Part shown: positions 515 to 39,397 of the stretch, piece after piece | Layout of the letters: every line of letters starts with the position of its first letter | Numbering within the stretch: the stretch's first letter is position 1 | Assembly (NCBI GenBank): GCA_040757115.1 | Contig: JBFLYA010000002.1 | Location: forward strand, 1-59,479 | Source of the DNA: a bacterium | GTDB lineage: Bacteria; UBA9089; CG2-30-40-21; SBAY01 | DNA: 59,479 bases | Direction of reading: 5' to 3' | Position numbers and translations under genes: made by a program | The notes under the pieces: generated by a model | The model's input: the letters and a program-made list of their open reading frames with translations, nothing else | Databases searched by the model: none | Told to the model about the DNA's origin: nothing

Positions 515-3088
515 ATGTTTGGGAGTTTATTAAAAAAGATTTTTGGGACTAAAAAAGAGCGGGATTTTCGTCGGCTAATGCCTTTAGCTGAAGAAATTAC
601 TGCATTAGAACCAGCAATTACTCAATTATCTGATGCCCAGTTACAGGCAAAAACAGATGAATTTAAAAAAAGATTAGCCGAGGGCGAAACATTGGAAGAT
701 ATTTTATTCGAGGCATTTGCCGTGGTGCGTGAAGTTGGGAAACGCACCATTAATATGCGACATTTTGATGTGCAATTAATTGGTGGGATAGTCTTACACG
801 AAGGTAAAATTGCCGAGATGAAAACAGGTGAAGGGAAAACTTTAGTCGCCACTCTACCCGCATACCTGAACGCATTGACAGGCAAAGGCGTCCATATCGT
901 TACGGTTAATGATTATTTAGCCAAAAGAGACCGCGAATGGATGGGACCAATCTACGAATTTTTAGGTCTTAGCGTAGGGGTCATTCAGCATGATTTGAAT
1001 TTTCGAGAGCGACAACAGGCTTATAGCTGTGATATTACCTACGGCACAAATAATGAGTTTGGTTTTGATTACCTCCGAGATAATATGGTTGGACATAAAG
1101 ACCTGAAGGTGCAACGAGGCCATTATTTTGCCATTGTGGACGAGGTAGATTCTATATTAATCGATGAGGCAAGAACACCACTTATTATCTCAGGCCCAGC
1201 CGAAGAATCTACGGATAAATACTATAAAGTTGATAAAATTATCCCTTACCTTCGTAAGGAAACTGATTATCAGGTTGATGAAAAACTTCGCACGGCTAAT
1301 TTAACTGAAGAAGGGGTAACAAAGGTAGAAAAATTACTTAAGGTAAAAAATCTTTATGAACCGAGTAATATAGATTTATCCCATCATGTTGTTCAGGCAC
1401 TAAAAGCCCATACATTATTCCAGCGAGATGTCGAGTATATGGTTAAAGATGGTGAAGTGGTAATTATAGACGAATTTACTGGTCGGTTGATGCCCGGTCG
1501 CAGATACTCAGAAGGACTTCATCAAGCCCTTGAGGCAAAAGAGGCTCTCCGCGTCAGACAGGAAAATCAAACCCTGGCTACGATTACCTTCCAGAATTAC
1601 TTCCGAATGTATGAAAAATTAGCCGGAATGACCGGAACAGCAGATACAGAGGCAGAAGAATTTGATAAGATTTATAAATTAGAAGTAGTCGTTATTCCAA
1701 CTAATAAATCCCTGATTCGCACCGAGTATCCGGATGTTATTTATAAAACAGAAAAAGCGAAATTCAAAGCCGTTATTCAGGAAATCGTAGAGTTATATAA
1801 AGCCGGCAGACCGGTGTTGGTCGGAACTATCTCTGTAGAAAAGTCAGAACGGCTCAGTGCCCTGCTAAAAAAAGAGGCTATCCCTCATCAGGTGCTTAAT
1901 GCTAAATATCATGAAATGGAGGCACACATAGTTGCCCAGGCTGGACATAAAAAAGCAGTAACTATTGCCACAAATATGGCTGGTAGAGGAACAGATATTG
2001 TCCTTGGCGGTAATCCACCAGATCCAAAAGAACACGATGAAGTCGTCAAATCAGGCGGGTTACATATTCTCGGTACTGAGCGGCATGAATCAAGAAGAAT
2101 TGATAACCAACTTCGGGGTCGGGCTGGAAGACAGGGAGACCCAGGCTCATCTAAATTTTATCTTTCATTAGAAGATGATTTGATGCGAATATTTGGTTCT
2201 GAGAAAATTCAAGGGATTATGGAAACTCTGGGGTTAGGAGAAGACGATGTGATTGAACATCCCTGGATTACTACCGCAATTGAACGAGCCCAAAAACAGG
2301 TGGAAGGCCATAATTTTGACATCCGGAAAAGATTATTAGAATTCGATGATGTCATGAATCAGCAAAGAACCATTATTTATCAAGAAAGGGATAGAATTTT
2401 AAACGAAGAAAGTATCTCAGAACATATCCAGGAAATAATTGATGAAGTTATGGATGACACCATTTATTCTTACGCTAATGAAAAAGACCATCCCAGTGAT
2501 TGGAATAAAGAGGGTTTAATGAATGGATTATATCAAGTTTTTGGGATAATAATGGACTTAAGTAATGTGCAAAACTTTGATGACCTGAAAGAAATGGTAA
2601 CTTCCACAATTAAAGAGGTCTATAAAGAAAGAGAGGATTTAATTGGAAAAGAACAGATGGACCAACTTCAACGAAGCATTATGCTTCATGTGCTTGATGC
2701 CCATTGGAAAGACCATCTCCATAATATGGACTATCTTCGCGAAGGAATTAATTTACGCGCCTATGGACAAAAAGACCCATTAGTTGAATATCGGCATGAA
2801 AGCTATCGAATGTTTGACGCATTAATTGTCAAGGTTAAAGAGGAGGCAGTCGGATACCTCTTTAAAGTTCAAATAGTGGCAAACCCTGTCCTCCAGCAAA
2901 GACCTGTTCAAATGGTAGAAAGAAGAGAAACCATCCCGACAAAACATCCCCAAAAGCAAAAAGAAATACCAATAATAGAAGAAAAACATAAACTGGGCAG
3001 AAATGACCCCTGTCCTTGTGGCAGTGGCAAGAAATACAAAAAATGCTGTCTGGAAAAGGGTAACCGTTCAGGTGGTAATTTACCGTAG
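515..3088 (+). CDS. secA: Preprotein translocase ATPase SecA
   Basis: 857-aa ORF with [39 protein letters not shown] and the C-terminal zinc motif [13 protein letters not shown]. The last ~9 codons (NRSGGNLP) lie inside a dispersed inverted-repeat element starting at 3059. Confidence 0.97.
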
Positions 3089-3314
3089 AGACGCAGAGAA
3101 ACAGAGAAGACATGGAAATAAATCAGATCACAGAAAAGATTATTGAGGTAATCTTTGTAATACATAGGACATCAAAACCAAATTTGTTAATCAATCATGA
3201 TATGTCAGTCCTAAAAAGTTTGCTCTGATGAAAATCAGAGATGGAATGAAACGTATGACAAATAGTTTTTAATTTTTTTCTCTGCGTCTCTGCGTCTCTG
3301 CGGTGAACGGTTAC
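3059..3314 (+). pseudogene. Internally deleted GxxExxY-family gene remnant bounded by inverted repeats
   Basis: Left end: ggtaaccgttca..ccgtagagacgcagaga. Right end: tctctgcgtctctgcggtgaacggttac, its reverse complement. Inside, 3112-3272 reads MEINQITEKIIEVIFVIHR (N-terminal signature) and, in another frame, DGMKRMTNSF* (C-terminal signature). The core of the protein is missing. Confidence 0.6.
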
Positions 3315-3355
3315 GGAAAAGGCAACTGTTTAAATGTCCGTGTAAATAAGGGAAA

Positions 3356-3919
3356 ATGAAAACTGATTTAAGAAAGGCAATCTTAGCCAGAAGAGATTTG
3401 TTAACTATCCAGGAGATAACCGCAAAAAGTTTTAAGATAAAAGGAAGGCTTTTTGATTTAGCAGAATTTAAAGAGTCAGCCTTTGTCTGTTTTTATGTCT
3501 CTTTTAAAAGTGAAGTCCAGACACATCAGATGATTAAAGAGACATTAATGCTGAATAAAAAAGTTGCGGTGCCAATCGTCGAACGAAACAAAAGTTTATC
3601 TCTTTGTGAATTAAAGGATTTTGATAAAGAGCTGGAAGTCGGTAAATTTGGAATTTTAGAGTCAAAACTTGAATATCGAAGACCGGTAGATTTATCAAAA
3701 GTAAAGTTAGTGATTGTTCCGGGGGTAGTTTTTGATAAAAACGGCAATCGCATTGGTTATGGAGGAGGCTATTACGATAATTTATTAAGCAAGATGTGCG
3801 GTATTCCTTTTATTGGTTTAGCATATGAATTGCAAATTGTGAATGATGTGCCTGCAGAAGACCGAGATATCCCGGTGCATAAAATTATTACGGAAAACAG
3901 AGTTATAAATAGGACATAA
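3356..3919 (+). CDS. 5-formyltetrahydrofolate cyclo-ligase
   Basis: 187 aa with a GYGGGYYD motif; size and layout are typical of the MTHFS family. Confidence 0.85.
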
Positions 3920-3929
3920 AGGAGAGAAT

Positions 3930-4400
3930 ATGTCTAAATTAACCCATTTTGACAAACAGGGACAACCCAGGATGGTTGATGTCAGTCAGAAGGATGTAAC
4001 TTCACGAATAGCCATCGCCAGAGCAAAGGTTTTGATGAAAAAAGAAACTATTGAGCTCATTTGTAATAAAAAGATACAAAAAGGCGATGTATTAAGTGTT
4101 GCCGCAACTGCCGGGATTTTAGCCGCTAAAAAAACATCCGAATTAATCCCTATGTGTCATCCATTAATGATAGAATCTGCTGATATTAGGTTTAATCTAA
4201 ATGAGACTGACATAGAAATAGAGGCACAGGTTACTGTCTGGGCTAAAACAGGCGTAGAAATGGAGGTTTTAACCGCAGTTTCTATTGCCGCCTTGACTAT
4301 CTATGATATGTGTAAGTCCGTTGACCGCGAAATGACTATTTCAGAGATACAATTGATTAAAAAAGCAGGCGGTAAAAGCGGAATATGGAAAAGGATATAA
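3930..4400 (+). CDS. moaC: Cyclic pyranopterin monophosphate synthase MoaC
   Basis: 156 aa with [22 protein letters not shown] and [34 protein letters not shown] lies just upstream. Confidence 0.93.
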
Positions 4401-4441
4401 AAAACACCTTATTTTATCAAGATGGATATTCATAAGGAATA

Positions 4442-5260
4442 ATGCTAATGGCGAATAAAAATTTACCTATTGGTATCTTTGACTCTGGAGTTGGTGGGTT
4501 GACGGTAGCGGCTGAAATAATGAAAACCTTACCTTCAGAAGATATAATCTATTTTGGTGATTTAGCCCGAACCCCTTATGGCTCAAAATCTCAAGAAACT
4601 GTCCGCAGATTTTCCCTTGAGATTGCTAACTTTCTTATCGAACAGCAGGTGAAAATGATTGTCGTTGCCTGTAATACTGCATCATCTTTAGCCTTAGGTG
4701 TATTAAAAGAAAGATTTAGCCTGCCAATTATCGGTGTCATCCAGGCTGGTGTTTTGAAGGCAATAAAGATAAGTCGGTCTAAAAGAATAGGTGTGATTGG
4801 CACTCAAGCTACCATTTCCAGCAATGCCTACCTTGAGGCAATTAAAGCCATAGACCCCACCATTCAGGTCACAAATCAACCCTGCCCTTTATTTGTGCCA
4901 TTAGTAGAAGAAGGTTGGTTTGAACATAAAGTAACTAAATTAGTGGCACAAGACTATTTTACCCCATTAAAAAACAATCAAATAGACACACTAATTTTAG
5001 GCTGCACACATTATCCATTCTTAAAAAACATCTTACAAGAAATTATGGGGAATGAAGTCGTATTGGTTGATTCCGCAATTGAAGTTGCCTTCCAGACAAA
5101 AAAGGTATTAGAGGAAAATAACTTACTTTGTAACCAAAATCCTACCCCTGTCTATAAATTTTATGTCAGCGACGCCTCTTCAAAATTTGTCGAAATAGGT
5201 AAAAGATTATTAGGTGAAAAAATTGGGGTAGTAAAGCAGGTTGAAATAGGAACTATGTAA
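4442..5260 (+). CDS. murI: Glutamate racemase MurI
   Basis: Motifs IGIFDSGVGGLTV, VACNTAS and LGCTHYP. The second ATG at 4448 has better spacing to AAGGA (4434-4438) and may be the true start. Confidence 0.93.
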   Translation: MLMANKNLPIGIFDSGVGGLTVAAEIMKTLPSEDIIYFGDLARTPYGSKSQETVRRFSLEIANFLIEQQVKMIVVACNTASSLALGVLKERFSLPIIGVIQAGVLKAIKISRSKRIGVIGTQATISSNAYLEAIKAIDPTIQVTNQPCPLFVPLVEEGWFEHKVTKLVAQDYFTPLKNNQIDTLILGCTHYPFLKNILQEIMGNEVVLVDSAIEVAFQTKKVLEENNLLCNQNPTPVYKFYVSDASSKFVEIGKRLLGEKIGVVKQVEIGTM

Positions 5261-5488
5261 GATAAAGCCGCAACCTGTTTAGCGTGGTCAGAGAACAAAA
5301 GGGAAAGTATTGAGTTATTACAAAACTATTTGAAATACAATAAGTTTTGTAATACAAAATTAAAAATTAAATATTAAAATGCAAAATGACATATCAAATA
5401 TCATATCAAAAATCAAAGAGCAAATATCAAAATTAAGGAATTCTTTTATTCTTATTTTTGATTTTTAATATTTAATATTTGATTTTTT

Positions 5489-5725
5489 GTAACCGTTCAG
5501 GCTATATATCAAAAGTGTAAGAAAGGGGATAAGGAGATAAGAGTGATATGGAGATAAGATAATAGAAATAGATTGAAATTTATAGAAATAGGTAGAAATT
5601 GATTGTGGAAAACAACAAATTTCCATAAATTTCTATTAGTTTCTATTAATTTCAATTTTTTTAATAATATCTCCCTATCTCCTTAATCTCCACATCTCCT
5701 TTTGTTACACCACCTGAACGCTTAC
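5489..5725. repeat. Non-coding inverted-repeat element with 13-bp TIR gtaaccgttcagg / cctgaacgcttac
   Basis: The TIR pair brackets nested low-complexity inverted repeats: ggggataaggagataag..cttaatctccacatctcc and aatagaaatagattgaaattt..aaatttctattagtttctatt. No ORF. The 39624-39826 element has the same TIR. Confidence 0.7.
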
Positions 5726-5907
5726 CAGAAAAGATTATTGAGGTAATCATTGTCATACATAGGACATCAAAACCAAATTATTAATCAATCATGAGATGTC
5801 GGGCCTCAAAAGCTTGCTCTGATGAAAATCAGGAATGGAATGAAGCGTATGGTAAATAGTTTTTAATTTTTTCTCTGCGTCTCTGTGTCTCTGCGGTGAA
5901 CGGTTAC
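5726..5907 (+). pseudogene. Second copy of the internally deleted GxxExxY remnant
   Basis: About 90% identical to 3130-3314 by eye. Carries EKIIEVIIVIHR, NGMKRMVNSF* and the right IR tctctgtgtctctgcggtgaacggttac. The left IR is replaced by the 5489-5725 element. Confidence 0.6.
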
Positions 5908-7377: not shown

Positions 7378-7534
7378 AAAGTAACTATTCAGCCACAGAT
7401 GGACACGGATGAAACACTGAAAATTCGTAATCCGTGTTCGTAATTAGGCTGAAGGCTTTTCCTCCTATTATCCTCTGCCTTCTGCCCTCTGCCTTCTGCC
7501 CTCTGCCCTCTGTATTTATCCGTGCTAATCCGTG

Positions 7535-8401
7535 TTAATCAGTGGTTGATAAATCTTTGATTACTGCCTTTCGCATTATCTCAACTGGTGCTTTTTTACC
7601 TGTCCACATCTCAAATGCGAGTGCTCCTTGATGAACCAACATTCCGAGCCCATTTTGTGTTTTGCATCCTTTTTCGCGGGCTACTTTAAGAAGCAGGGTT
7701 TGAACTGGTTTGTAGATGATGTCATAAACTACCTGCCGGGAAGAAAGCCAATCTGGATTAATTAATAAGGGGTCATTTCTCGACATACCACAGGGTGTCG
7801 CATTGATGAGTATATCGCTATCTTTAATATTATCTTCAAATTCTTTATCTTCTAATCTCACGGTCTCAATACATAATTTGGGAAAATAATGTTTAATCTG
7901 TGTCGTGAGTGTTTCTGCCTTAACCACATCTTTATCCATAAAAGTTATTCTTTTGATTCCTGATTTAGCCAATGAGAAGCCGATTGCCCGTGCCGCTCCG
8001 CCGGCACCTAAAATAAAAACCTTTTTATCCGCAGGGTCAACATTCATCTCTTCGATAAGTGAGGCAACAAATCCCTTCCCATCCGTATTATCTCCAATTA
8101 GTTTTCCGTCATCCACACAAATAGTATTTACTGCTCCAATTAAACCTGCCTCATAGGAAAACTTATCTAAATACTTCATTACCACTTCTTTGTAAGGTAT
8201 GGTTACATTTGCTCCAGAAATATTTAAGCCTAACAAACCATTAATGGCTAAATTCAGGTTTTCTGGTTTGACTTTAAATGGTAGATAGACAAAGTTCAGG
8301 TTTAATTCTTTAAATGCGGCATTATGCATCAGGGGGGATAAGGTATAATCTATGGGATAACCAATTAATCCAACTATCTTTGTTAAGGCGTTGATATTCA
8401 T
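7535..8401 (-). CDS. aroE: Shikimate dehydrogenase AroE
   Basis: Motifs SPLMHNAAF, GANVTIPYK, NTDGKGF and GAGGAARA. The last codons (STTD*) fall in a dispersed repeat (ttaatcagtggttga). Confidence 0.93.
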   Translation of the reverse strand: MNINALTKIVGLIGYPIDYTLSPLMHNAAFKELNLNFVYLPFKVKPENLNLAINGLLGLNISGANVTIPYKEVVMKYLDKFSYEAGLIGAVNTICVDDGKLIGDNTDGKGFVASLIEEMNVDPADKKVFILGAGGAARAIGFSLAKSGIKRITFMDKDVVKAETLTTQIKHYFPKLCIETVRLEDKEFEDNIKDSDILINATPCGMSRNDPLLINPDWLSSRQVVYDIIYKPVQTLLLKVAREKGCKTQNGLGMLVHQGALAFEMWTGKKAPVEIMRKAVIKDLSTTD

Positions 8402-8491: not shown

Positions 8492-10618
8492 TTATCCTGC
8501 GATTTGTTGAAGATTATGTTGTTCTCGTTCAAGTATTCTGAGAAATGCCTGGACGACTCCCGGATGAAACTGACTTCCTGAGCCTTTCTTTAATTCATTT
8601 ATAGCCACATCCAGCGGCAATGCTTTACGGTAAGGTCTATCTGATGTCATCGCATCAAAGGCATCCGCAACCTTAATAATACTTGCATGTAAAGGTATTT
8701 TGTCATGGCTTAATCCATCAGGGTAACCCTTGCCATCTATTTGTTCATGGTGAAGTCTGACGGCTAACATTATTATTTCCGGAAATTCTACAGGTCCCAG
8801 AATTTTAGCACTAATCATTGGATGTTCCTTGATGACACGCCATTCATCTTCATCTAATTTACCAGGTTTGAGAAGCACATCTTCTTTTATCCCAATTTTA
8901 CCTATGTCATGGAGAAGTGCGGCAATTTCAAGCGATTCTATATCTTCTTCCGTGAGTTCTAATTCTCTGGCTATATCTAATGTATATTTAACTACTGATT
9001 CAGAATGTCCTTTAGTATAGGGGTCTTTAGCATCTACGGCCGCGGCCAATGCCTTAACGGTGCGCAGGAAACTATTATGTATTTCTTCATGTAATTTGGC
9101 ATTTGAAACCGCTATAGCCGCCTGGTCGGCAATAGCCGAAAGTAAATTTACCTGGTCTTGTGTATATCTTTGGCGCCGTGTAGAATATACCGTCAGGACT
9201 CCAATTGATTCTTCCTTCACCACTAATGGAATACATAATAATGAATTTACACCTTCTTTAGCCACATATTCAGGATGGTAGTATTTTTTATCATTAGGGA
9301 CATCAGTGATAATCACTGGTTTTCGTTCTTGAAGTGCCTCCTCACTTATGGTTTTGCGTTGACCAATGGTTGTTCCTTTTTCATTAAAATACTCTTGCAT
9401 TAAACCATAAGAGGCATTTAATACTATTTCCCTTTCTTCTCCAATCAGTCTTAAAGAGCAAATGGATGCTTCCATAAGTCTTGCGGCTACCTCTAAAATT
9501 AAGGTTAAAACCTTCTCTAAATCTAAAGTAGAAGAAATCGTCTTACCTACCTCAAATAATGTGGATAATTCACTTACCTTTTGTTTCATTCCGCGGTATA
9601 ATCGAGCATTTTCTAAGGAAATAGCCACTGTATTGGCTAAAGTAGATAACACCCTTAAATTATCTTGATTAAATGCTTGCTCTTCAACACGGCAGATATT
9701 AAAGATACCAATTACATTCCCTCGAACGACTAATGGAAATGCAAGGAATGATTCAAACTTTTTCCCAATGATAGATTTATCCATTGATTCTCCTATTTTA
9801 TCTATCGTGGTGATAAGGTGTTCCGGGGTAATTTTAATATCTGAGAGGTTACTAAACATAGAGACTAATTTATCTTTAATCTCACTAATATATTTTTGAG
9901 AGAGTTGAGTATTGGTTTTTATCCACAACCAGTTATTTTCGTCATTTTCATAGAGTAGTAGTGCACAAAAATCAAATTTGACTATCTCATGCAGGGTATC
10001 TCCAACTAATCTAAATATTTCCTCCTCACTGCGGATAGAATTAAGTGTTTGAGTAATCTCATTTATTTTAGTCAGTTCATTAATTCTTGATTCGGCTTTA
10101 CTATAAAGTTCTGCATTGGCTATGGCGGAAGCGGCTTGACTGGCGAATAAAGATAAAAGCCCTAAATCTTCACTGGTATAATCTATTGGTTTAATTAGCC
10201 GATTAACAGATATGACACCAATGACTTTATCACGAACCGAAAGAGGAACACACATAGCGGATTTTATTCTTTCTTCTTCCCGTATCTTTCTAAAACGCAG
10301 GTCAGTTACTTTACCAATAAGGAGTAGAGGTTCTCCTTCTTTTGCCACTGTCCCGGCAATCCCATCACCTAATTTTATCCTGGTATTTGAAATTACCTCA
10401 GGTGAAAGCCCTCTGGCGATACTTATTGTTAATTCTCCTTTTTCTTCATTAAGTAACATTATTGAGCCTGTATCAGCTTCTAACTGAGATATGCAGGCAT
10501 CCATAATCAAATCAAGCAGTTCATCCAGAATAATGGTTGAACCCATTGCTTTACCAATTATATAGAGGCTGGATAATCTCTGGAGTTGTTTATTTTGTTC
10601 AATTGTCTCCTCAGACAT
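8492..10618 (-). CDS. Multi-GAF HD-GYP domain protein (c-di-GMP phosphodiesterase type)
   Basis: 708 aa. GAF-like repeats are followed by HDIGKIGI and HHEQIDGKGYPDGL (HD-GYP signature). Confidence 0.85.
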   Translation of the reverse strand: MSEETIEQNKQLQRLSSLYIIGKAMGSTIILDELLDLIMDACISQLEADTGSIMLLNEEKGELTISIARGLSPEVISNTRIKLGDGIAGTVAKEGEPLLLIGKVTDLRFRKIREEERIKSAMCVPLSVRDKVIGVISVNRLIKPIDYTSEDLGLLSLFASQAASAIANAELYSKAESRINELTKINEITQTLNSIRSEEEIFRLVGDTLHEIVKFDFCALLLYENDENNWLWIKTNTQLSQKYISEIKDKLVSMFSNLSDIKITPEHLITTIDKIGESMDKSIIGKKFESFLAFPLVVRGNVIGIFNICRVEEQAFNQDNLRVLSTLANTVAISLENARLYRGMKQKVSELSTLFEVGKTISSTLDLEKVLTLILEVAARLMEASICSLRLIGEEREIVLNASYGLMQEYFNEKGTTIGQRKTISEEALQERKPVIITDVPNDKKYYHPEYVAKEGVNSLLCIPLVVKEESIGVLTVYSTRRQRYTQDQVNLLSAIADQAAIAVSNAKLHEEIHNSFLRTVKALAAAVDAKDPYTKGHSESVVKYTLDIARELELTEEDIESLEIAALLHDIGKIGIKEDVLLKPGKLDEDEWRVIKEHPMISAKILGPVEFPEIIMLAVRLHHEQIDGKGYPDGLSHDKIPLHASIIKVADAFDAMTSDRPYRKALPLDVAINELKKGSGSQFHPGVVQAFLRILEREQHNLQQIAG

Positions 10619-10873: not shown

Positions 10874-11344
10874 TTATGCGGCTAATTTCAATTCTCTCCT
10901 TATCCCTGTTACCTCATTTTCAAGTCTTAGAATCTTTATTTCCAACTTCTCATACTCATCTCGTCTGACAATTACCTCATATAGTCGGTCAATCCGTTTA
11001 TTTGTGTCATCTATTCGTATCGTATTTTTAAATATTTCCTCTTTCAATTCTACTCTTAATTCATCAATCCGTTTATTTGTTTCATCAATCCGTTTATTTG
11101 TTTCATCAATCCGCATCGTATTTTTAGCTATTTCTTCTTTCAATTCTACTCTCAGAGCATCAATCCGTTTGTTCGTTTCATCAATTCTTCTGCTCTGGTC
11201 CACCAGATGGGTATTCATATCATCCAGTCGTTTATTCATCATTGCCAGAGCAGTTTTAATCTGTTCATTTTCTGACTTAATGGCTTGCAAATCAGGCACT
11301 ATAAGTTCTTGTATAAGTTTTTTTATTGTCTCTGCTATTTCCAT
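10874..11344 (-). CDS. Coiled-coil protein with tandem IDETNKRID repeats
   Basis: 156 aa with heptad-like composition. RIDETNKRID recurs 5 times, along with a duplicated LRVELKEEI(A/F)KNT(M/I)RID block. The matching DNA tandem repeats lie at about 11040-11130. Confidence 0.6.
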   Translation of the reverse strand: MEIAETIKKLIQELIVPDLQAIKSENEQIKTALAMMNKRLDDMNTHLVDQSRRIDETNKRIDALRVELKEEIAKNTMRIDETNKRIDETNKRIDELRVELKEEIFKNTIRIDDTNKRIDRLYEVIVRRDEYEKLEIKILRLENEVTGIRRELKLAA

Positions 11345-11524
11345 CTTTTCCTCTTCAATATTAATTACTGCGGTAATCTCAAAAACTAACCACAGAGAAT
11401 AAAAGAGGTTAAGAAGTTAAAAGAATAAGAAGTTAAGAAAAAGAGACTTTTAAATCTTAACTTCTCCACCTCTTATCTTCTTAACCTCTTCCCTCTCTCT
11501 GTATCCTCTGTGGTTTCTTTCCTC

Positions 11525-11739
11525 GTAACTATTCACCATTCACAATTTCTTTACTAAATTTCCTTCATAATGGTGAATGGTGAATTGTCAATTGTGAATT
11601 GTGAATTATCACTCTTCACGGTGTCAAGCAAACCTGGCCCAAGAGTTCGATGCACCGCTATAGCGCATCCAATGACTCTATTCGATAATTCATCAAATTT
11701 CACTTCGTGCTCTCCGTACCCTTCGTGGTGAATAGTTAC
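11525..11739 (-). pseudogene. Truncated GxxExxY-family gene fragment inside an IR-bounded cassette
   Basis: Cassette termini are gtaactattcacc (11525) and ggtgaatagttac (11727-11739). The minus strand of 11618-11739 reads VTIHHEGYGEHEV KFDELSNRVIGCAIAVHRTLGPGLLDTV, then degenerates. Confidence 0.65.
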
Positions 11740-11791
11740 CTTTCCTCTTTTTTCCTATTTTAACCCTACCATCTGCTCAATTCGGTAACTC

Positions 11792-12718
11792 TTAGAATTT
11801 TGTCATCAAAGAAATTCGATGGGTATCATCCAAATCATCATAATCACAATAGGCATAATCTAAACCAATACCCGTCCCTGGGAATTTAAATCCCGCACCA
11901 AAAGTCAGGTCTGATGATTTTAAAGCATCTTTCGTCAGTGTTTTATATCCGGCACGAATGGCCATTATTTCCTTGAACCAATATTCTGTCCCAAGATTAA
12001 AGTTTGTATCATTGTCTGAAGGGAAATTAACATCCAGACTTAAGGTCAATGCCTTATCTAATAATTTATAGGCACCACCTACCTTGAAATTTAATGGTAA
12101 TGCGTCTTTTTCACTCACAAATGCCTTTAATTTAGGGCCAAAATTCTGCACTACCATCCCTAAAGTGAGATTTTCAACTTGAGGTTTATATAAACAACCA
12201 ACATCTAAACCAAAGCCGGTAGATTTTTCGGTATCGATCTTCATCTGGATGTATTTTACTGTTGCCCCCACAGAACACTTTTCCATCAGCTGTCTGGCAT
12301 AGGATACCGCTACGGCAATATCTTTACCTTCGTATGTCCCATCCGGAACATTATCATTACCATCAAGATATTTGTCTATGCTTCCCGAATCTAATAGGGT
12401 AATCGCTCCACCCATAATTCCACCCATTATTTGAGCAGGATGGACATAGGCTAAGTAATTGTATTTTATCTCTGCCAGCCAATCTGAGTACATAAAGGTA
12501 CATTGTCTTTGTTCAATCTGAGCAATCCCGGCTGGATTCCAATAGAGGGCGTTAATATCATCTGCTACCGCACAAAATGATTCACCCATACCATTAGCCC
12601 TTGCCCCCTGGCCTAATTTTAAAAACACCGCTCCTTTACTTCCAGGCGAACCCGCCAGGACATAACTACCTGCCAGCAAAACTGCTACCCCTACCATTAA
12701 ACTTACAAACCTTTTCAT
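11792..12718 (-). CDS. PorV/PorQ-family-like outer-membrane beta-barrel, paralogue 1
   Basis: Signal peptide, then GAVFLKLGQGARANGMGESFCAVADDINALYWNPAGIA, which fits the PorV/PorQ N-terminal signature as I recall it. Alternating beta-strand pattern and C-terminal aromatic residue (TKF). AAGGAGG RBS. Confidence 0.6.
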   Translation of the reverse strand: MKRFVSLMVGVAVLLAGSYVLAGSPGSKGAVFLKLGQGARANGMGESFCAVADDINALYWNPAGIAQIEQRQCTFMYSDWLAEIKYNYLAYVHPAQIMGGIMGGAITLLDSGSIDKYLDGNDNVPDGTYEGKDIAVAVSYARQLMEKCSVGATVKYIQMKIDTEKSTGFGLDVGCLYKPQVENLTLGMVVQNFGPKLKAFVSEKDALPLNFKVGGAYKLLDKALTLSLDVNFPSDNDTNFNLGTEYWFKEIMAIRAGYKTLTKDALKSSDLTFGAGFKFPGTGIGLDYAYCDYDDLDDTHRISLMTKF

Positions 12719-12992
12719 TTTAACCTACCTCCTTAATTTTATTTTAGATTTTAGATTGAACCGATCTGTTTTAAAGTCAGTTTTCAATCAAAAATCGCAA
12801 ATCTATTAATTTTGTATTTCGGCTTGTTGCTGATAAATTACAAGCCAAAATTAGAGACATTTTACTCCTTACTCTAATATATCACAATATATTATTTTTG
12901 TCAAGAATTTTTTTTGATTATTTTTTTAATTATGATATGTATAAAGATAAGTTATTAAGAGGGAATATGATTGTGACGAGCAATTTTTTAAC
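12014..12992 (-). repeat. About 0.98-kb block near-identical to 21121-22089 (5' two-thirds of the PorV-like gene, its 5' UTR and promoter)
   Basis: Direct comparison shows identity apart from a ~99-nt diverged patch at 12269-12367 and homopolymer indels upstream. The 3' 220 nt of the two genes are only about 75% identical. Confidence 0.9.
12876..12904 (-). promoter_or_regulatory. Sigma-70-type promoter for PorV-like paralogue 1
   Basis: Minus strand: TTGACA (12904-12899), 17 nt, TATATT (12881-12876), with TGa extended -10. This leaves a ~150-nt leader containing the hairpin ggcttgt..acaagcc. Confidence 0.65.
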
Positions 12993-13316: not shown

Positions 13317-16300
13317 ACCCTCTAAATTATTAAATACCGCTGGCACTTTGATAGTTATTTCATCATCTAATACCGCAGGTCGCTGGTCAATAGATTGTTC
13401 CTGACCAATTCTTTCGATAAACTTTGTTTCCCGGTTTTCTTCATCATCAAACTCAAAATTAACTTTAGAATAGACATCACAAGAAATGACCCTGAATGGC
13501 ACGGTAGCTAATAATCCTTCATCATCTATCTCTGGCTCCCAGACTACGACCGCATAATCAATCTTACCTGATGAATTATCTACTTCATTCTTCAGAATAT
13601 CAGCCTGATGTTTCACTGAACCCCGTGGGAAATCCCCCGGTTGAATCTGGATACCATCTTTGCTGTTATCCGCATCTATTACCTGTAATACCTTTGGATT
13701 AAAAGATAAGTGAATCTCACCACCAAGATAGTCTTTGGCATCGCGAACATATATTTTCAGATAGATAATATTCCCCACCCGCAGTTCATCAATATCTACT
13801 CCTTCAAGTGTCTCAAGATTAAATGACAATTCTATTCTGCCTTCAGTCTTTTTAGTTTTAGCCGGCATCGGAGTTAATTTTGCTATTTTAGCCTTTATTT
13901 GCTGTTTCCCAAAATTATCTCCAAAGATTTCAAAATCTAATGAATTAACCTGCTCATCATGATTAAAATCACCCTCTTTATTTCTTTCCCAATTACCTTC
14001 AGGGTTACCTTTATAATCTCCGTAGGCATCAACAAACCCAGGCCAATCGTCAATATTTACCTTACCATCATTAGTTATATCCCCTGCCAATAAGGTCATT
14101 GTGCCGATGTAACTGGTATCCTCAAATTGGGTTGGACTGATATAAATATTAGTTTTACTCGCAGGAGATGCCCCCCAGGTATCAAAGGTAAGGGTGTAGG
14201 TTCCTACAGGAATCTTCCCAAAAAAGAAGTAAGAATTATTATTAGTCATTGTAGTCGTCCCAATTTCTACAATCCTAACTTGAATATCTGAGCAGGTACC
14301 CAATGTCGAAGTCCCTAAATTAAGCAAGCAAAACCCTGCTATATTACCAAATCTTCTCAATGAATAGGCAGTAAAAGTGCAGGGAGAGCCAGTTAATCCT
14401 ACCGAAATAGCCTGGATGGTATATGTGCCTGGTGGTTCTGTGCCTAAGGTAAGAAAGGAAGATGTTGTGCCTTGAATGTTGGTAGTCGTTTTAGTTGGAG
14501 AGATAGAATAATCTATTGACCCGGGCGGCGAAGAGATAATTTTCCATTCTACATCTACCCCAGAGCAAGGATTATTATATTTATCCACTACCTTAACTAT
14601 AAATGGGTCTTTTAAAGTAAAGGTGCAGGTATTAACCTGGTTATTTCCAGAGATATAATGGAGGGTAGTTGGAGTGCCAGGGGTGATAATGATAGAGGTA
14701 GTGCCAATAAACCCAAGATATTCCCCTTTGATGGTATATGTGCCGATGTAATAGGCAGAAAAGGTATTAAGGGTAAATGAACCACCACCCGATGTAGTAA
14801 AAGTAGTAGAGCCAGTAACATCAAGTTCTAAACCACTACAATATGCCACGCAGTTATAATTAATTACCTCATCTGCCTTGACCACTTTATCCTTTGGGAA
14901 AACAGAGATAGAGGTAATAACATAATAGAGGGCAGAGTGAGTATTAAATGGAATATCTATACTTCCTGGCTTTCTTAATCTTGTCATCCGATTGTGTTGC
15001 GAATCAAAATCAAAGATAACACTTGAGGTTCCACCCAGGATAGCTTTAAATTTTATCTGACAAAGTATTCCCGAACCAGTAGCAGAGCCAGAAATTAGCC
15101 CAACGCTATAATCTATCTCACCTTTAGTATTATCATATTTATTCTGGAGTACCCAACCCTCTGGTGGAAATGTTCCTGTGCCTATTTCAATTACCTGAAG
15201 GATATTGGGGTTAAAACTAAGATGTAATTCTGCTACTCTTAATTCTGTTACATCCTCTATTTCCACATAAGCGGTAAATGTTGAATTAACCGCAATATTC
15301 TGTATGGCAGGTGTAATTTTCAAAAGAGTGGTTGGGAGGATATAAAAGGTTGTCTGAGCATAAATATCGGTCATCAAACCATAAGCCGTAATAGTTGTCG
15401 TTCCAATTGGCTGGCTATCGACGGTAAATATTACCTCAAATCCACCGAAGGCATTAGTAGTAGCTAAAGTAATAGTCGGAGTAGTCCCAAACTCAATCCT
15501 GATTAATTCAGTTGCCCCAAAGCCATTACCCATTACGGTGACAATAGAACCGATAGTCCCAGAAGTAGGGTTAATAAAGCCAATATTTGGCAGGATGATA
15601 AAGGGACATCTATCCATATTACCACTTACCATCCCTCTACCTGTAATAGTCGTAATGCCATAAGGTTGGGTATCTATAGTAAATACGGCAGAAAATGCTC
15701 CGTAGAAATTAGTAGTGGTGTAGGCAATTGTAGGCGTAGTGCCAAAGTTAATACAGATACCCTCTGTTGCGTCAAATCCAGCACCTTCTACAGTGATAAG
15801 AGTTCCTACTGTTCCCAGTGATGGCGTAATCATAAATATTCGTGGAATGACAAAAAATATAGTTTCAGCACTCTTACCTGAACTCAAACCTGTCGCCTTC
15901 ACCGTTTTAGTGCCATAAGGTTGGGTGCCAACGGTAAAAGTGGTATTAAATTGCCCTAAACTATCAGTAGAAGTCAAAACAATGGTTTGGGTAGTGCCAA
16001 AATCTATCCTTATCACTTCAGTCACTTTATAATCTATTCCACTTATCGTTACTATTGTTCCTACAGAGCCAGAAATAGGCAAAATCAAAGTAATATTTGC
16101 TGGAGGTCCTTCTGATAACCAAGGCTCATAATCAATATTACCAGAAAATGTCGAAGTAGCAGGTGGATGTTGTCCCCACCAATTATATTCTGCTGTCTGA
16201 GTCCCATCTGTTTGTAGATTATATGTTTGGTTATTATAGATATTATTATAGATAAGTGGAGAAATTTCTGAAGATTTACAATAAATACCTACTCCATTAC

Positions 16301-18260
16301 CAGCTGGATCGCCACCTCGGTTATATCTGAGAGTATTATAGGTAATGTTATTATCATCCGACGAAATTAAGTAAATTCCACTACCTACTTCTCCTGTACC
16401 ACCATCACCACATGGGACTCCTGCTGCTCCTCCTTGCCCGCCTATATTATCTGATGTGGTATTACCTGAAATGGTATTTCCTGTAGATGATGAAAGATAT
16501 ATTCCTGTACCTACACCACCTATACCACCAGAACTACCATACGCTCCTCCAGCTCTTCCTCCTTGACCACCTATATTATGTGATATAGTATTATTTGATA
16601 TAGTATTTCCTGTAGAGAATAAAAGATATATACCAGTACCTATACCACCTGCACCAGTAGAACCTTGATAGCCCAGCGCACCTGCTCCTCCTTGACCACC
16701 TATGTTATGTAATATAGTATTATTTGATATAGTATTTCCTGTAGAGAATAAAAGATATATGGCAGCACCTATTCCACCTGGAACACCAGGGCGGCCTACT
16801 TTTCCATTTTCTCCGATTCCTCCAACGATATAATTATATCGGATAGTAAAATTTGAACAATTAATTAATACAATTCGACCGAGATTTGTTGAACCAGAAC
16901 CAGCAAGAGTCAAAGTTTGATACTCAATAGTAGTTGAAGTAGTAATTCCATAATAATAATGAATTAGTTCACCATTATAGGTATTGGAAGGAAAGATGGT
17001 ATTATTGTAGCTATTTGAGTCAATGTAGAGACCATATCCTTGACCAGATATCCCTTCGTAACCAGCTTCAGCACCTGGTCCTCCTTGTCCCCCTATATTA
17101 TCTGATGTGGTATTACCTGAAATGGTATTTCCTGTAGAAGATGAAAGATATATTCCCACACCTATACCACCTGTACCACCACTACCCCAGTATCCGCCTC
17201 CTGGTCCTCCTTGCCCCCCTATATTATCTGATATGATATTATCTAAGATAGTATTCCCTGTAGAGGATAAAAGATATATTCCCGCACCTACACCACCTAT
17301 ACCACCAGAACTACTAGCACCACCTGACCCTCCTTGTCCCCCTATATTATCTGATGTGGTATTACCTGAAATGGTATTTCCTGTAGAAGATGAAAGATAT
17401 ATTCCTGTACCTACACCACCTATACCACCCATACCTAAACCATTTCCAGATCCCCCTTGACCACCTGTATTATCTGATATAGTATTACCTGAGATGATAT
17501 TTCCTGTAGAAGATAAAAGATATGTTCCCGCACCTATACCACCTATACCACCATCACCATTAAAACCGCCTCCTCCTCCTTGGCCGCCTGTATTTTGTGA
17601 GATTACATTTCCTAAGATGGTGTTATTTGTTGATGATGAGAGGTATATCCCGCAGCCTATACCACCTGCCCCTCCAGAGTAAAAGTCAAAGCCTGCACCT
17701 CCTTGACCACCTACGTTGTTGGAGATAGTATTTGTACCAATGAGATTATTTTTTGATCCTAAAAGGTATATTCCACAACCTATACTACCTGACGAACCAG
17801 TAATTCCATCATTTCCTTTATTTCCATGAATAGAATTATAAGTAATTACAATTTCCCATACATTTTTTAAATACACTGCTTGCTTAGCATAGCTAATTTC
17901 ACAATGACTAATTGTCCCTTTCGCATTTGTTCCATTAAATTCAACTCCTTGCCAATATCCAGGTGTAGGAGAGGAAAAACTAGTAAAGGTAATAGTTCCT
18001 CTCTCTGCCCCAGAAGCATTTAAGGTACCATACACTATCAACGCTGTATTAGTTGCAAACTTTACTTCTACTCTTGGCTCGATAACAAGTGTTTCACCAG
18101 AAGGCACAGTAACAGTAGCCGTAATTATGTAGGGACTACCTCCAAGATTCCAAATACCACTTTGAGTGCCACTCACCTCCATAGCTTCCACAGTTTCTAA
18201 TTTAAACGAGACTCCTATTACTAATAATAAATAAACCACCCATTTCATCTTTTTATCCAT
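13053..18260 (-). CDS. Giant secreted surface protein 1: beta-helix repeats, 3 IPT/TIG-like, cohesin-like x2, Ig-like, dockerin-like, T9SS C-terminal domain
   Basis: The track ORF begins at TTG 18278. ATG 18260 sits 8 nt after AAGGAGG (18275-18269). Signal peptide MDKKMKWVVYLLLVIGVSF. Domain calls are by motif; see the sub-features. Confidence 0.9.
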   Translation of the reverse strand: MDKKMKWVVYLLLVIGVSFKLETVEAMEVSGTQSGIWNLGGSPYIITATVTVPSGETLVIEPRVEVKFATNTALIVYGTLNASGAERGTITFTSFSSPTPGYWQGVEFNGTNAKGTISHCEISYAKQAVYLKNVWEIVITYNSIHGNKGNDGITGSSGSIGCGIYLLGSKNNLIGTNTISNNVGGQGGAGFDFYSGGAGGIGCGIYLSSSTNNTILGNVISQNTGGQGGGGGFNGDGGIGGIGAGTYLLSSTGNIISGNTISDNTGGQGGSGNGLGMGGIGGVGTGIYLSSSTGNTISGNTTSDNIGGQGGSGGASSSGGIGGVGAGIYLLSSTGNTILDNIISDNIGGQGGPGGGYWGSGGTGGIGVGIYLSSSTGNTISGNTTSDNIGGQGGPGAEAGYEGISGQGYGLYIDSNSYNNTIFPSNTYNGELIHYYYGITTSTTIEYQTLTLAGSGSTNLGRIVLINCSNFTIRYNYIVGGIGENGKVGRPGVPGGIGAAIYLLFSTGNTISNNTILHNIGGQGGAGALGYQGSTGAGGIGTGIYLLFSTGNTISNNTISHNIGGQGGRAGGAYGSSGGIGGVGTGIYLSSSTGNTISGNTTSDNIGGQGGAAGVPCGDGGTGEVGSGIYLISSDDNNITYNTLRYNRGGDPAGNGVGIYCKSSEISPLIYNNIYNNQTYNLQTDGTQTAEYNWWGQHPPATSTFSGNIDYEPWLSEGPPANITLILPISGSVGTIVTISGIDYKVTEVIRIDFGTTQTIVLTSTDSLGQFNTTFTVGTQPYGTKTVKATGLSSGKSAETIFFVIPRIFMITPSLGTVGTLITVEGAGFDATEGICINFGTTPTIAYTTTNFYGAFSAVFTIDTQPYGITTITGRGMVSGNMDRCPFIILPNIGFINPTSGTIGSIVTVMGNGFGATELIRIEFGTTPTITLATTNAFGGFEVIFTVDSQPIGTTTITAYGLMTDIYAQTTFYILPTTLLKITPAIQNIAVNSTFTAYVEIEDVTELRVAELHLSFNPNILQVIEIGTGTFPPEGWVLQNKYDNTKGEIDYSVGLISGSATGSGILCQIKFKAILGGTSSVIFDFDSQHNRMTRLRKPGSIDIPFNTHSALYYVITSISVFPKDKVVKADEVINYNCVAYCSGLELDVTGSTTFTTSGGGSFTLNTFSAYYIGTYTIKGEYLGFIGTTSIIITPGTPTTLHYISGNNQVNTCTFTLKDPFIVKVVDKYNNPCSGVDVEWKIISSPPGSIDYSISPTKTTTNIQGTTSSFLTLGTEPPGTYTIQAISVGLTGSPCTFTAYSLRRFGNIAGFCLLNLGTSTLGTCSDIQVRIVEIGTTTMTNNNSYFFFGKIPVGTYTLTFDTWGASPASKTNIYISPTQFEDTSYIGTMTLLAGDITNDGKVNIDDWPGFVDAYGDYKGNPEGNWERNKEGDFNHDEQVNSLDFEIFGDNFGKQQIKAKIAKLTPMPAKTKKTEGRIELSFNLETLEGVDIDELRVGNIIYLKIYVRDAKDYLGGEIHLSFNPKVLQVIDADNSKDGIQIQPGDFPRGSVKHQADILKNEVDNSSGKIDYAVVVWEPEIDDEGLLATVPFRVISCDVYSKVNFEFDDEENRETKFIERIGQEQSIDQRPAVLDDEITIKVPAVFNNLEGALVYPNPAYKGQEVTFTQITTDKQVTLRIYNIAGELVIEKQKDNINDSQIKWNLKNKDNEDVASGIYIYFLKDELGSVKKGKIGVIK
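13905..14095 (-). other. Dockerin-like duplicated Ca-binding segment
   Basis: GDITNDGKVNIDDW followed by DFNHDEQVNSLDFEIFGDNFG. Confidence 0.6.
15340..16095 (-). other. Three tandem IPT/TIG-like domains (about 84 aa each)
   Basis: Example: PRIFMITPSLGTVGTLITVEGAGFDATEGICINFGTTPTIAYTTTNFYGAFSAVFTIDTQPYGITTITGRG, repeated three times with the same pattern. Confidence 0.6.
16280..17800 (-). repeat. Gly-rich right-handed beta-helix-like repeat array in giant protein 1
   Basis: About 40-aa modules, GGQGG..GGIG(V/A/T)GIYL(S/L)SSTGNTISGNT(I/T)SDNIGG, arranged as 6+1 and 4+1 modules around a spacer. About 90-nt near-identical DNA copies lie at 16441-16530, 17091-17160 and 17341-17430. Confidence 0.8.
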
Positions 18261-20629: not shown

Positions 20630-20897
20630 CACAAAAAAACCATCTTAAATTATCAAAGAGCAAAATATTAGGACACAGATGGACGCAGATTATCAGGATA
20701 ATATCCACAGATTTCGCAGAGGACACAGATTATAATTTAAAACCTAAAAATATAAGGGTATAGCCCCTAACACCTTCTGTGCTCTGACCTCTGTTTTCTG
20801 ACTTCTGTCCTCTGATATTTATCCGTGCTAAATCCGTGTTCATCAGTGGCTGAATAATTACTAAAAATCTTAAAAATCTGCGTTTATCTGCGTCCAA

Positions 20898-21818
20898 TTA
20901 AAACTTTGTCACTAATGACACTCGGTGCGTATCATCCAGATCACCATAATCACAATAGGCATAATCAAGTCCTATGCCTGTGCCTGGTAATCTAAATCCT
21001 GCTCCAAAGGTTAAATCTGAGGATTTTAATTCATCTTTAGTTAGTGTTTTGTATCCAGCTCGAAGTGCTACTATTTCTTTGAACCAGTATTCTGCTCCAA
21101 GGTTAAAATTCGTATCATTATCTGAAGGGAAATTAACATCCAGACTTAAGGTCAATGCCTTATCTAATAATTTATAGGCACCACCTACCTTGAAATTTAA
21201 TGGTAATGCATCTTTTTCACTCACAAATGCCTTTAATTTAGGGCCAAAATTCTGCACTACCATTCCTAAAGTGAGATTTTCAACTTGAGGTTTATATAAA
21301 CAACCAACATCTAAACCAAAGCCGGTAGATTTTTCGGTATCGATCTTCATCTGGATGTATTTTACTGTTGCCCCTAATGAGCAGTTCCCCTTTATCTCTC
21401 TGGCATAGGAAACTGCTAATGCCATATCTTTACCATCATAGTTACCTTCTGGATTGGCAGCCGCACCATATTTGTCTATACTTCCCGAATCTAATAGGGT
21501 AATCGCTCCACCCATAATTCCACCCATTATTTGAGCAGGATGGACATAGGCTAAGTAATTGTATTTTATCTCTGCCAGCCAATCTGAGTACATAAAGGTA
21601 CATTGTCTTTGTTCAATCTGAGCAATCCCGGCTGGATTCCAATAGAGGGCGTTAATATCATCTGCTACCGCACAAAATGATTCACCCATACCATTAGCCC
21701 TTGCCCCCTGGCCTAATTTTAAAAACACCGCTCCTTTACTTCCAGGCGAACCCGCCAGGACATAACTACCTGCCAGCAAAACTGCTACCCCTACCATTAA
21801 ACTTACAAACCTTTTCAT
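20898..21818 (-). CDS. PorV/PorQ-family-like outer-membrane beta-barrel, paralogue 2
   Basis: 306 aa. Residues 1-116 and about 151-243 are identical to paralogue 1. One loop and the C-terminal ~65 aa are diverged. Confidence 0.6.
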   Translation of the reverse strand: MKRFVSLMVGVAVLLAGSYVLAGSPGSKGAVFLKLGQGARANGMGESFCAVADDINALYWNPAGIAQIEQRQCTFMYSDWLAEIKYNYLAYVHPAQIMGGIMGGAITLLDSGSIDKYGAAANPEGNYDGKDMALAVSYAREIKGNCSLGATVKYIQMKIDTEKSTGFGLDVGCLYKPQVENLTLGMVVQNFGPKLKAFVSEKDALPLNFKVGGAYKLLDKALTLSLDVNFPSDNDTNFNLGAEYWFKEIVALRAGYKTLTKDELKSSDLTFGAGFRLPGTGIGLDYAYCDYGDLDDTHRVSLVTKF

Positions 21819-39371: not shown

Positions 39372-39397
39372 TTTTTCCCTTTTCAGGGAGAAAACAG

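Follow-up and report, generated by a model that had tools for sequence, protein, structure and literature searches.

Which enzyme moves the short hairpin elements that lie among the genes of this contig, and what do these elements owe to the GxxExxY protein family? The window, meaning the whole stretch of 59,479 nucleotides analysed here (contig JBFLYA010000002.1 of assembly GCA_040757115.1, from an uncultured bacterium of the lineage UBA9089; G+C 34.7%), carries no intact GxxExxY gene by tblastn. A first-pass annotation had read two similar fragments, hereafter copy 1 (3059-3314) and copy 2 (5726-5907), as internally deleted derivatives of a mobile GxxExxY cassette bounded by inverted repeats. 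We find that both copies are best explained as non-autonomous elements that arose from GxxExxY cassettes by internal deletion and were moved in trans by an IS66-like transposase, a reading to which we give a probability of roughly 0.6.

Copy 1 is a 255-bp element on the forward strand at 3060-3314. It starts with GTAACCGTTCA and finishes with TGAACGGTTAC, so the reverse-complementary termini described in the first-pass annotation are real, with a boundary at 3060. An outer terminus (3060-3074) is followed by a degenerate inner terminus with the left arm (3075-3107), an N-terminal GxxExxY remnant (3112-3189), a C-terminal remnant with its stop codon (3219-3272), the right arm (3278-3303) and a right cap (3304-3314). 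The arms inside the termini, ACCGTAGAGACGCAGAGA and TCTCTGCGTCTCTGCGGT, are complementary and are made of short repeats (ACCGTAGAGACGCAGAGAAACAGAGA on the left, TCTCTGCGTCTCTGCGTCTCTGCGGT on the right). As a single strand the element folds with −84.3 kcal/mol (z = −7.9), and none of 200 shuffled sequences was as stable. A perfect 8-bp direct repeat, GGAAAAGG, lies on both sides of the element, at 3052-3059 in the last codons of secA and at 3315-3322, as a target-site duplication. Owing to the insertion at 3060, SecA reads into the element and gains the new tail GNRSGGNLP before a stop; when the element and one octamer were removed in silico, the secA end was restored (...CCLEKATV and stop), and the unoccupied site is predicted to have ended the gene with ...CTGGAAAAGGCAACTGTTTAA.

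The neighbours of copy 1 are secA and a gene for 5-formyltetrahydrofolate (5-FTHF) cyclo-ligase. Upstream of secA, a solo capped left end consisting of a cap and an arm of RCRRAG units lies on the reverse strand at 406-453, and its 90% complementarity to 3060-3107 suggests that secA is bracketed by two element ends. Many capped elements have a doubled end, in which two caps precede the arm, an outer one (GTAACCGTTCAGGTG) and, directly inside it, a degenerate inner one (GTAATTTACCG...); we saw this on the left side at 3060-3107, 406-453 and 42454-42502, and on the right side at 4500-4549 of locus L063 (L and P numbers are our labels for retrieved loci and proteins). Nesting or one-ended events are possible origins of the doubled caps. 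A 2047-bp Logan short-read contig of the same strain (L001), 100% identical to window 3287-5333, starts within the right arm of copy 1 and stops near the next repeat block, and its end inside the arm indicates that the elements evidently break assemblies.

Copy 2, on the forward strand at 5726-5907, matches 3131-3314 at 168 of 184 positions (91.3%), so the second, approximately 90% identical deletion copy named in the first-pass annotation was confirmed, in a different gene context. Its neighbours, murI and an lpxI-like gene, are unrelated to the flanks of copy 1. Since the flanks differ and the two copies share the element alone, a larger segmental duplication does not account for them. The claim that the duplicated product keeps both inverted-repeat termini held for copy 1 and failed for copy 2, in which only the right arm and right cap are left. 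What lies to the left of copy 2 is the end of a separate 237-bp hairpin element without an open reading frame (ORF), a MITE (miniature transposable element with inverted repeats) on the forward strand at 5489-5725, which has the same terminal motif (cap GTAACCGTTCAGG ... CCTGAACGCTTAC) and a low-complexity, palindromic interior. The composite 5489-5907 is bordered by GATTTTTT and GAATTTTT, which match at 7 of 8 positions.

The termini of these elements follow a common pattern. The cap is a 7-nt outward extension of the arms that produces GTAAC(C/T)(G/A)TTCA. Allowing one mismatch, we counted 26 occurrences of GTAACYRTTCA in the window, where 4.2 would be expected; terminal heptamers are GTAACCG, GTAAGCG, GTAATCG and GTAACTA, and the window holds at least 12 element ends or elements. 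When one genome per species was scanned with the cap plus the first arm unit, at least 120 loci in more than 10 phyla were found among the matches listed, in Planctomycetota, SAR324, Chloroflexota, Nitrospirota/Nitrospinae, Desulfobacterota, Bacteroidales, Gammaproteobacteria, Desantisbacteria, Aerophobetes, Vulcanimicrobiota and others. Most of the listed loci continued with further RCRRAG units that the search pattern did not demand. A few matches to the cap pattern inside the coding sequences of gyrB and relA/spoT were set aside as chance. A scan of viral contigs for the cap gave 9 loci and was uninformative, and cyanobacterial plasmid matches to the arm sequence were uncapped solo arms.

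Forward and reverse caps 30-6000 bp apart were then paired, and the 8 nt outside each end were compared. Among 65 pairs, 15 had perfect 8/8 duplications (0.001 expected) and a further 8 matched at 7/8 (0.025 expected); the elements with such duplications were 83-452 bp long and had no intact ORF. The window accounts for four of the perfect cases (3060-3314, 11525-11739, 39625-39826 and 40839-41290), and other phyla for the remaining eleven. Target-site duplications, for which the first-pass annotation had proposed a search, are thus present on capped elements, and none was detected around the uncapped intact cassettes described below.

These results bear on the simplest alternative, that ordinary pseudogene decay or a segmental duplication produced the two copies and that their inverted repeats arose by chance. 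The weak similarity of copies 1 and 2 to GxxExxY proteins would fit decay. The unrelated flanks contradict it, as do the inverted arms of the intact genes described below, and chance is excluded by the duplications, the motif excess, the conservation across phyla and the z-score of the fold; we therefore consider this explanation hardly credible.

A related metagenome-assembled genome (MAG) allowed filled and empty sites to be compared. Contig JBFLXS010000070 of GCA_040755795.1, which was found through a shikimate dehydrogenase in the same 90% cluster, is 91-98% identical to the window in aligned segments. There the stop codons of aroE and of a LysM gene are 8 nt apart and the element at 7381-7549 is missing; in the window this element separates the two stops and adds STTD to AroE. 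Conversely, the related contig holds a 98.5% identical version of the 5489-5725 MITE after ...AAATAAAG, at a site where the window is uninterrupted (6909); as the related contig ends, we could see one junction only. Breaks in synteny between the two contigs fall at element ends, for example at 9866-9909 of the related contig (L226), a solo right end like that at 51815-51858. The related genome thus differs from the window by the presence or absence of an element at two sites. The first-pass annotation had proposed looking for empty paralogous sites. Together with the duplications and the varied internal deletions, this polymorphism supports its view of a mobile cassette with non-autonomous derivatives rather than random decay.

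How secure is the link of the capped elements to GxxExxY? The catalytic core (D ... ExK) is deleted in every GxxExxY copy of the window, and all are pseudogenes. Two derivatives matched curated models. Positions 11620-11703 on the reverse strand matched TIGR04256 positions 1-25 (23.5 bits) and Pfam PF13366 (22.0 bits, gathering score 22), and 51708-51812 matched TIGR04256 positions 89-116 (29.6 bits) and PF13366 (28.5 bits); both fall below the NCBIfam whole-protein cut-off of 35 because they are fragments. With a custom hidden Markov model (HMM) built from 177 sequences, 11525-11739 (reverse strand) aligned to profile positions 2-41 (E = 1e-11) and 51494-51858 to positions 88-123 (E = 2e-16). 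The two focal copies, 3060-3314 and 5726-5907, matched none of the curated NCBIfam and Pfam models. With the custom HMM the N-terminal piece of copy 1 was weakly recognised (E = 0.004), and neither its C-terminal piece nor copy 2 was significant. The first ~20 and last ~10 GxxExxY codons that the first-pass annotation placed inside copy 1 accordingly have their position in their favour, with weak HMM recognition of the first piece and a non-significant score for the second.

The assignment of the focal copies to GxxExxY is therefore weak as judged from sequence, and it draws mainly on position and on better-preserved relatives: the N-terminal-like piece directly follows the left arm, and the stop codon directly precedes the right arm. 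Across the capped elements the remnants are GxxExxY N- and C-termini in the correct register, and a capped locus in a Planctomycetota MAG (L016) has the same architecture as the derivatives of the window. The portions retained differ (residues 1-52 in protein P0229, residues 1-29 in the element at 11525, residues 1-9 together with the final 36 in that at 51494), which argues that a capped intact progenitor once existed. Of three further fragments that had been assigned the same logic, 11525-11739 and 51494-51858 were confirmed by the HMM, and the third, at 22198-22400, turned out to be scrambled and weak.

To see what an undeleted cassette looks like, we turned to metagenomes, where 80 loci were sampled via the family alignment and 68 genes had enough flanking sequence. 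(An early homologue search had used a chimeric query padded with Bacteroidota-like consensus and returned mostly Bacteroidota-type relatives rather than the lineage of the window.) The 200 nt upstream were aligned locally with the 200 nt downstream in inverted orientation, with controls displaced by 900 nt. Inverted flanks scoring at least 24 were found at 59 of the 68 intact GxxExxY genes and at 1 of 58 controls; at a score of at least 30 the counts were 45 and 0. All inspected intact close relatives of the window remnants had arms (L211, L213-215 and L218-225). Inverted termini on intact GxxExxY genes, which the first-pass annotation took as the test of its idea, are thus the rule among these metagenomic genes.

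The arms are 25-50 nt long and consist of two to four degenerate units of 8-9 nt, each RCRRAG plus 2-3 nt. The left arm opens with TT(A/C/T)ACC, continues with the units and ends a few bases before the start codon; its mirror image follows the stop codon and finishes with GGT(T/G/A)AA. Unit types vary among loci (GCAAAG, ACAGAG, ACGAAG, ACGGAG, GCTGAG) but are shared by both arms of a given locus: in the first unit, the left and right arms match at its two R positions in 97% and 92% of loci, whereas shuffling the loci gives 50%. An intact gene at 5900-6360 of L097 has inverted arms of another unit type, GGAAxCCAGGAAxGCAGGA, from which it follows that the cassette principle is not tied to RCRRAG units.

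Armed cassettes fall into two size classes, ~100-299 bp and ~430-600 bp. ORFs of at least 60 residues in the larger class are GxxExxY genes, and the smaller class is deleted or empty. Searching public data with a query from which an internal part had been deleted on purpose brought up dozens of natural ORFs of 49-113 residues that carry in-frame deletions with varied end points. Two of these, P0229 and P0217 from NCBI MAGs, have exactly the leader and N-terminus seen in the window; exact-protein look-ups of both gave no contigs. In L212 a 64-residue deletion derivative with both arms lies between pheA and an aminotransferase gene. In some intact-looking genes the start codon itself is lost (ACG at 2470-2500 of L213, ATA at 2175-2205 of L214), which suggests from the sequence that many GxxExxY copies are not translated.

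The setting of the intact cassettes raises the possibility that the arms act on RNA. By crude ORF calling, the upstream neighbour was co-oriented with the cassette in 47 of 57 cases and the downstream neighbour in 42 of 52; both neighbours were in sense in 29 cases and both in antisense in 3. Cassettes can lie within operons, for example between ribBA and ribH in L221 and between pheA and the aminotransferase gene in L212. About 19 of the 68 loci show strong direct similarity of upstream and downstream flanks, that is, head-to-tail cassettes; array members are 0-10 nt apart, for example ...GGTTAAgtgtttTTTACCAC... (L128, L141, L176, L123 and L158). By analogy with the intervening sequences of 23S rRNA, the arms might pair in a read-through transcript and form a long stem cleavable by RNase III. 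Such processing would limit polar damage to the host operon, and the purine-rich units upstream of the ORF, which resemble Shine-Dalgarno sequences, would be sequestered in the stem.

One could go further and regard the arms as primarily an RNA-level device (an RNase III stem, a translational lock or an insulator) of a resident gene family whose copies increase through duplication and recombination; the capped MITEs would then have arisen secondarily, as a lineage-specific event in which an unrelated MITE captured arm sequence. The sense bias within operons, the co-varying arms, the uncapped cassettes without duplications, the head-to-tail arrays and the 23S precedent all agree with such a view. 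It leaves unexplained, however, the perfect 8-bp duplications of the window, the presence/absence polymorphism and the identical deletion products at unlinked sites, and the in-register GxxExxY remnants indicate that the capped elements descend from cassettes rather than sharing arms by chance. We consider it unlikely.

The duplications and caps point instead to a known type of transposase. IS66 inverted repeats begin with GTAAGCG, and the elements produce 8-bp direct repeats (PMC11946415). A 2442-bp IS66-family element of Cupriavidus has the termini GTAACGGCCCGG... with flanks GATCAATT and GATCAATT, and one of E. coli has the ends GTAACCGGCTCA and GTAAGCGACTCG with flanks TCTTACGG and TCTTACGG. 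The IS66 elements compared start with GTAACGG, GTAACCG or GTAAGCG and share with the capped elements both the terminal heptamer and the length of the duplication. This specific match suggests that the GxxExxY protein is probably a passenger rather than the transposase, and from the sequences we infer mobilisation in trans by an IS66-type enzyme. In the mechanism that we propose, internal deletion of a GxxExxY hairpin cassette would yield a non-autonomous element, and a DDE transposase of the IS66 type, encoded elsewhere in the genome and acting in trans, would cut and insert it. The GxxExxY ORF would be a passenger dispensable for movement, and this would explain the spread of deleted and empty versions.

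Several families of insertion sequences (IS) produce 8-bp duplications, and a DDE family other than IS66 (ISL3, IS6, IS256 or IS1595) might mobilise the elements. An ISL3 transposase does lie beside the intact cassette of L218. Because this copy ends in a GGCTCT of its own and is missing from the sister contig L219, which is otherwise identical, we regarded it as unrelated; among the named families only IS66 is described as starting with GTAAGCG, and both examined IS66 elements start with GTAAC or GTAAG. Another DDE family thus seems to us quite improbable.

A different candidate is the GxxExxY protein itself, as a nuclease that recognises the RCRRAG units or a cruciform or hairpin of the arms and excises and inserts the cassette; deleted copies would then be non-autonomous dependants, as REPINs (hairpin-forming doublets of repetitive extragenic palindromic, REP, sequences) are of RAYTs (REP-associated tyrosine transposases). 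The gene is nearly always accompanied by arms, its D...ExK residues are invariant across 23 members, the arms of repeated units resemble the multiple binding sites at transposon ends and co-vary in unit type, deletion derivatives retain both ends, and neither the window nor 1.25 Mb of fetched loci yielded another candidate transposase. What speaks for a DDE enzyme is that the 8-bp duplication with GTAA(C/G)CG termini is a specific hallmark of IS66. Moreover, the capped, duplicated elements never have an intact gene and the intact cassettes have no duplication, several intact-looking genes have lost their start codons (ACG in L213, ATA in L214), and the structural search described below gives weak, generic PD-(D/E)XK matches only. 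We judge a role of the protein as mobility enzyme improbable.

Several observations weigh against the preferred reading of elements deleted from GxxExxY cassettes and moved by an IS66-like enzyme. The mobile signature, a GTAAC cap with an 8-bp duplication, was seen on deleted or empty elements only and never on an intact gene: none of ~80 intact genes was capped, and none of ~130 capped ends led into one. The capped master copy is one that we infer and did not see. Around uncapped intact cassettes, no duplications of 4-8 bp were found at any offset, so the preferred reading does not account for the spread of these cassettes. The likeness to IS66 termini covers ~7-11 nt (GTAACCG-[G]-YTCA) and the sequences diverge beyond. 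Neither tnpB nor tnpC of IS66 (tblastn with TnpB and two TnpC sequences) nor any other transposase bounded by cap termini was found in the window or the 1.25 Mb of fetched loci. At individual sites, copy 2 has lost its own left arm, 51494-51858 and 42454-42502 have no target-site duplication, and the junction at 7381 is not clean, with 7 nt present in the empty allele only and a degenerate left cap.

ORFs downstream of the ~130 capped ends were host genes, with no transposase among them. A 2.6-kb segment at 1215-3854 of L003 was considered as an autonomous element and rejected, as it consists of two solo ends around a host RNase R gene.

The GxxExxY family itself (TIGR04256; PF13366, PDDEXK_3) is very large, with thousands of matches at E < 1e-10 in a single search, and in the family alignment the PD-(D/E)XK residues (D...ExK) were invariant across 23 members. 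A sequence search of the PDB with the family profile found nothing. An AlphaFold2 model (predicted local distance difference test, pLDDT, 77; predicted template modelling score, pTM, 0.72) was compared with the PDB by Foldseek, and its neighbours were weak and generic members of the PD-(D/E)XK fold, all at E ≥ 0.04: lambda exonuclease, CidB, splicing endonuclease and HsdR. No specific function of GxxExxY can be read from the model. In the searchable literature the name is mentioned with nothing on its biology, and the 2012 PD-(D/E)XK survey entered PF13366 as "Unknown".

Among known systems, the capped elements resemble MITEs in having terminal inverted repeats, a fixed 8-bp duplication, small size, no transposase, multiple copies and presence/absence polymorphism. 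With the IS66 family they share GTAAC/GCG termini and the 8-bp duplication. They differ from it in that the interior is a GxxExxY hairpin with subterminal 8-9-nt units rather than a deleted IS66, and in that the cap is conserved across more than 10 phyla while a cognate IS66 with these termini was not found in the window or the 1.25 Mb. Mobile insertion cassettes (MICs) have a passenger ORF between terminal inverted repeats, lack a transposase and are mobilised in trans. The elements described here are similar in the passenger between inverted repeats and in the proposed mobilisation in trans; they differ in that no capped copy with an intact passenger was observed and that, instead of an occasional capture, both passenger family and arm architecture show conservation across phyla. 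The REP/REPIN and RAYT system likewise has a single small gene between inverted copies of a repeat that is also dispersed between genes as gene-less hairpin doublets. However, the RAYT is an HUH/Y1 enzyme and REPINs have no target-site duplication, whereas the gene flanked here matches PF13366, a PD-(D/E)XK family, and the dispersed forms have IS66-like tips and 8-bp duplications.

The closest structural counterpart of the GxxExxY cassettes is the intervening sequence of 23S rRNA. In Coxiella it measures 428 nt and has a terminal stem of 28 bp and a small sense ORF that is decaying; tandem heptamers GACAGAT precede its ATG, and excision by RNase III removes the Shine-Dalgarno region (PMC4990558). 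Such sequences are regarded as selfish, and their means of spread is not known (PMC4990558). Like the cassettes, the intervening sequences with an S23p ORF (Coxiella, Leptospira) are a few hundred nucleotides long, with a terminal stem and a small sense ORF in the loop that is often decaying, and the GACAGAT heptamers before the ATG are close to the RCRRAG and ACAGAT units found here. They differ in location (helix 25 or 45 of 23S rRNA, against sites between or at the ends of protein-coding genes) and in the encoded protein (the S23p four-helix bundle against PD-(D/E)XK GxxExxY), and the capped forms here have clear target-site duplications. Rfam detected no rRNA in the window, and it found no relevant family in the window at the gathering threshold or in seven cassette loci at E ≤ 0.1. 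A search of the fetched loci for cassettes with the S23p four-helix bundle, which used an approximate consensus as query, gave no match, so the link to intervening sequences rests on the literature. New here are the 8-bp duplications, the IS66-like cap, the spread across phyla, the filled and empty sites, the sense bias and the parallel with intervening sequences.

A bolder idea would derive the GxxExxY cassettes and the ORF-bearing 23S intervening sequences, as two branches, from a single ancient and pan-bacterial class of selfish elements bounded by hairpins. The arm units, or the hairpin or cruciform that they form, would be what the encoded PD-(D/E)XK protein recognises, and this protein would catalyse or license excision or insertion at the level of DNA or RNA; the IS66-like capped MITEs would be a derived offshoot. 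We regard this as speculative and rather unlikely. If true, it would provide a function for a very large orphan family and a type of mobile element driven by a nuclease.

The remaining capped elements of the window are diverse. On the forward strand, 7381-7549 belongs to a sister subfamily with arms of ACAGAT/ACGGAT units and has a degenerate right cap. The derivative at 11525-11739 on the reverse strand retains a GTG start and the first ~29-40 GxxExxY codons (VKFDELSNRVIGCAIAVHRTLGPGLL) and is flanked by the perfect duplication CTTTCCTC at 11517-11524 and 11740-11747. At 20800-20861 (forward strand) lies the right end of an ACGGAT-type element, an arm with the cap CTGAATAATTAC. The rearranged remnant at 22198-22400, to which no strand was assigned, consists of a cap, an arm and the last GxxExxY codons in reverse orientation (22198-22256) and a weak N-terminal-like piece (22318-22378, E = 0.005); no partner end was found for it.

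Further along the forward strand are a degenerate capped left end whose sequence overlaps with the upstream gene's stop codon (38781-38830, ATAACCGTTCACCGCAAG...), a solo capped left end with an arm and the first six GxxExxY codons (39533-39590, MEFNVL and stop), a capped hairpin MITE with the perfect duplication AATTTTTT (39625-39826), and a capped MITE with RCRRAG arms, a nested 220-nt repeat and the perfect duplication CAATCCCG (40839-41290). A minimal element of 49 bp at 42454-42502 consists of an outer cap, an inner cap, an arm unit and a right cap alone. The capped derivative at 51494-51858 keeps a GTG with 9 N-terminal codons and the last ~36 GxxExxY codons (KVGLLINFNVERLKEGIKRFVL and stop), with an unrelated hairpin nested between the two pieces (51594-51693); the right arm and the cap follow. 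The context of the GxxExxY stop codon, ...GTTCTGTAAC, generates an internal GTAAC (window 51815-51858 and 22236-22256). A 44-bp GTAAC...GTTAC unit of stop codon, right arm and cap is solitary in the related MAG (9866-9909 of L226). Possibly this unit is a mini-element with the internal pseudo-terminus as one of its ends; we saw no duplication beside it.

Other repeats accompany these elements. At the start of the contig (13-188) a 48-bp tandem repeat with the palindrome GTCCCATAGGGAC occurs in ~3.7 copies; its units are all identical, so it is not a CRISPR array. The 156-bp segment after it (191-346) recurs at 40436-40591 with 96% identity, and 40155-40185 groups with these three. The repeats at the contig start and at 39.4-41.7 kb look like another dispersed family. 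The stretch 39380-41700 is 2.3 kb of gene-free sequence packed with nested hairpin elements, whose arms consist of many short tandem units (e.g., gaatgtaga, ccaaattcc, tagtgaatt); within it a 220-nt segment occurs twice in inverted orientation with 99% identity (40204-40423 and 40983-41202, the latter within the 40839-41290 MITE).

A duplication of ~1.2 kb (11792-12992 and 20898-22089, 85-100% identical) spans a gene of outer-membrane type together with the region upstream of it, and a capped end lies beside each copy (11525-11739 and 20800-20861), the two ends being of different subfamilies. Arrays with a 123-bp period, encoding 41-residue repeats that are 60-90% identical, lie in large ORFs at 16299-17796 and 54902-56518 and are conserved in the related MAG (900-2100 of L226). 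Two protein-coding genes are enclosed by inverted low-complexity arms of ccagttaccaattacc units at 45364-45424 and 47679-47739, each arm spanning 61 nt, with 74% complementarity and 2.25 kb between them; similar units occur at 22410-22490. A 96-bp tandem duplication at 10989-11180 lies in a coiled-coil-like ORF on the reverse strand (10874-11344) that repeats DETNKRID...LRVELKEEI and sits just upstream of a hairpin at 11403-11490.

For the GxxExxY family, these findings supply a concrete and testable context, that of a selfish cassette, whose anatomy mirrors the long-puzzling ORF-bearing intervening sequences of 23S rRNA. For the genomes that carry them, the elements break short-read assemblies and mark synteny breakpoints between related MAGs, they yield spurious low-complexity N-terminal extensions and small ORFs in annotation, and they rewrite the ends of host genes, as seen with the tails of SecA and AroE.

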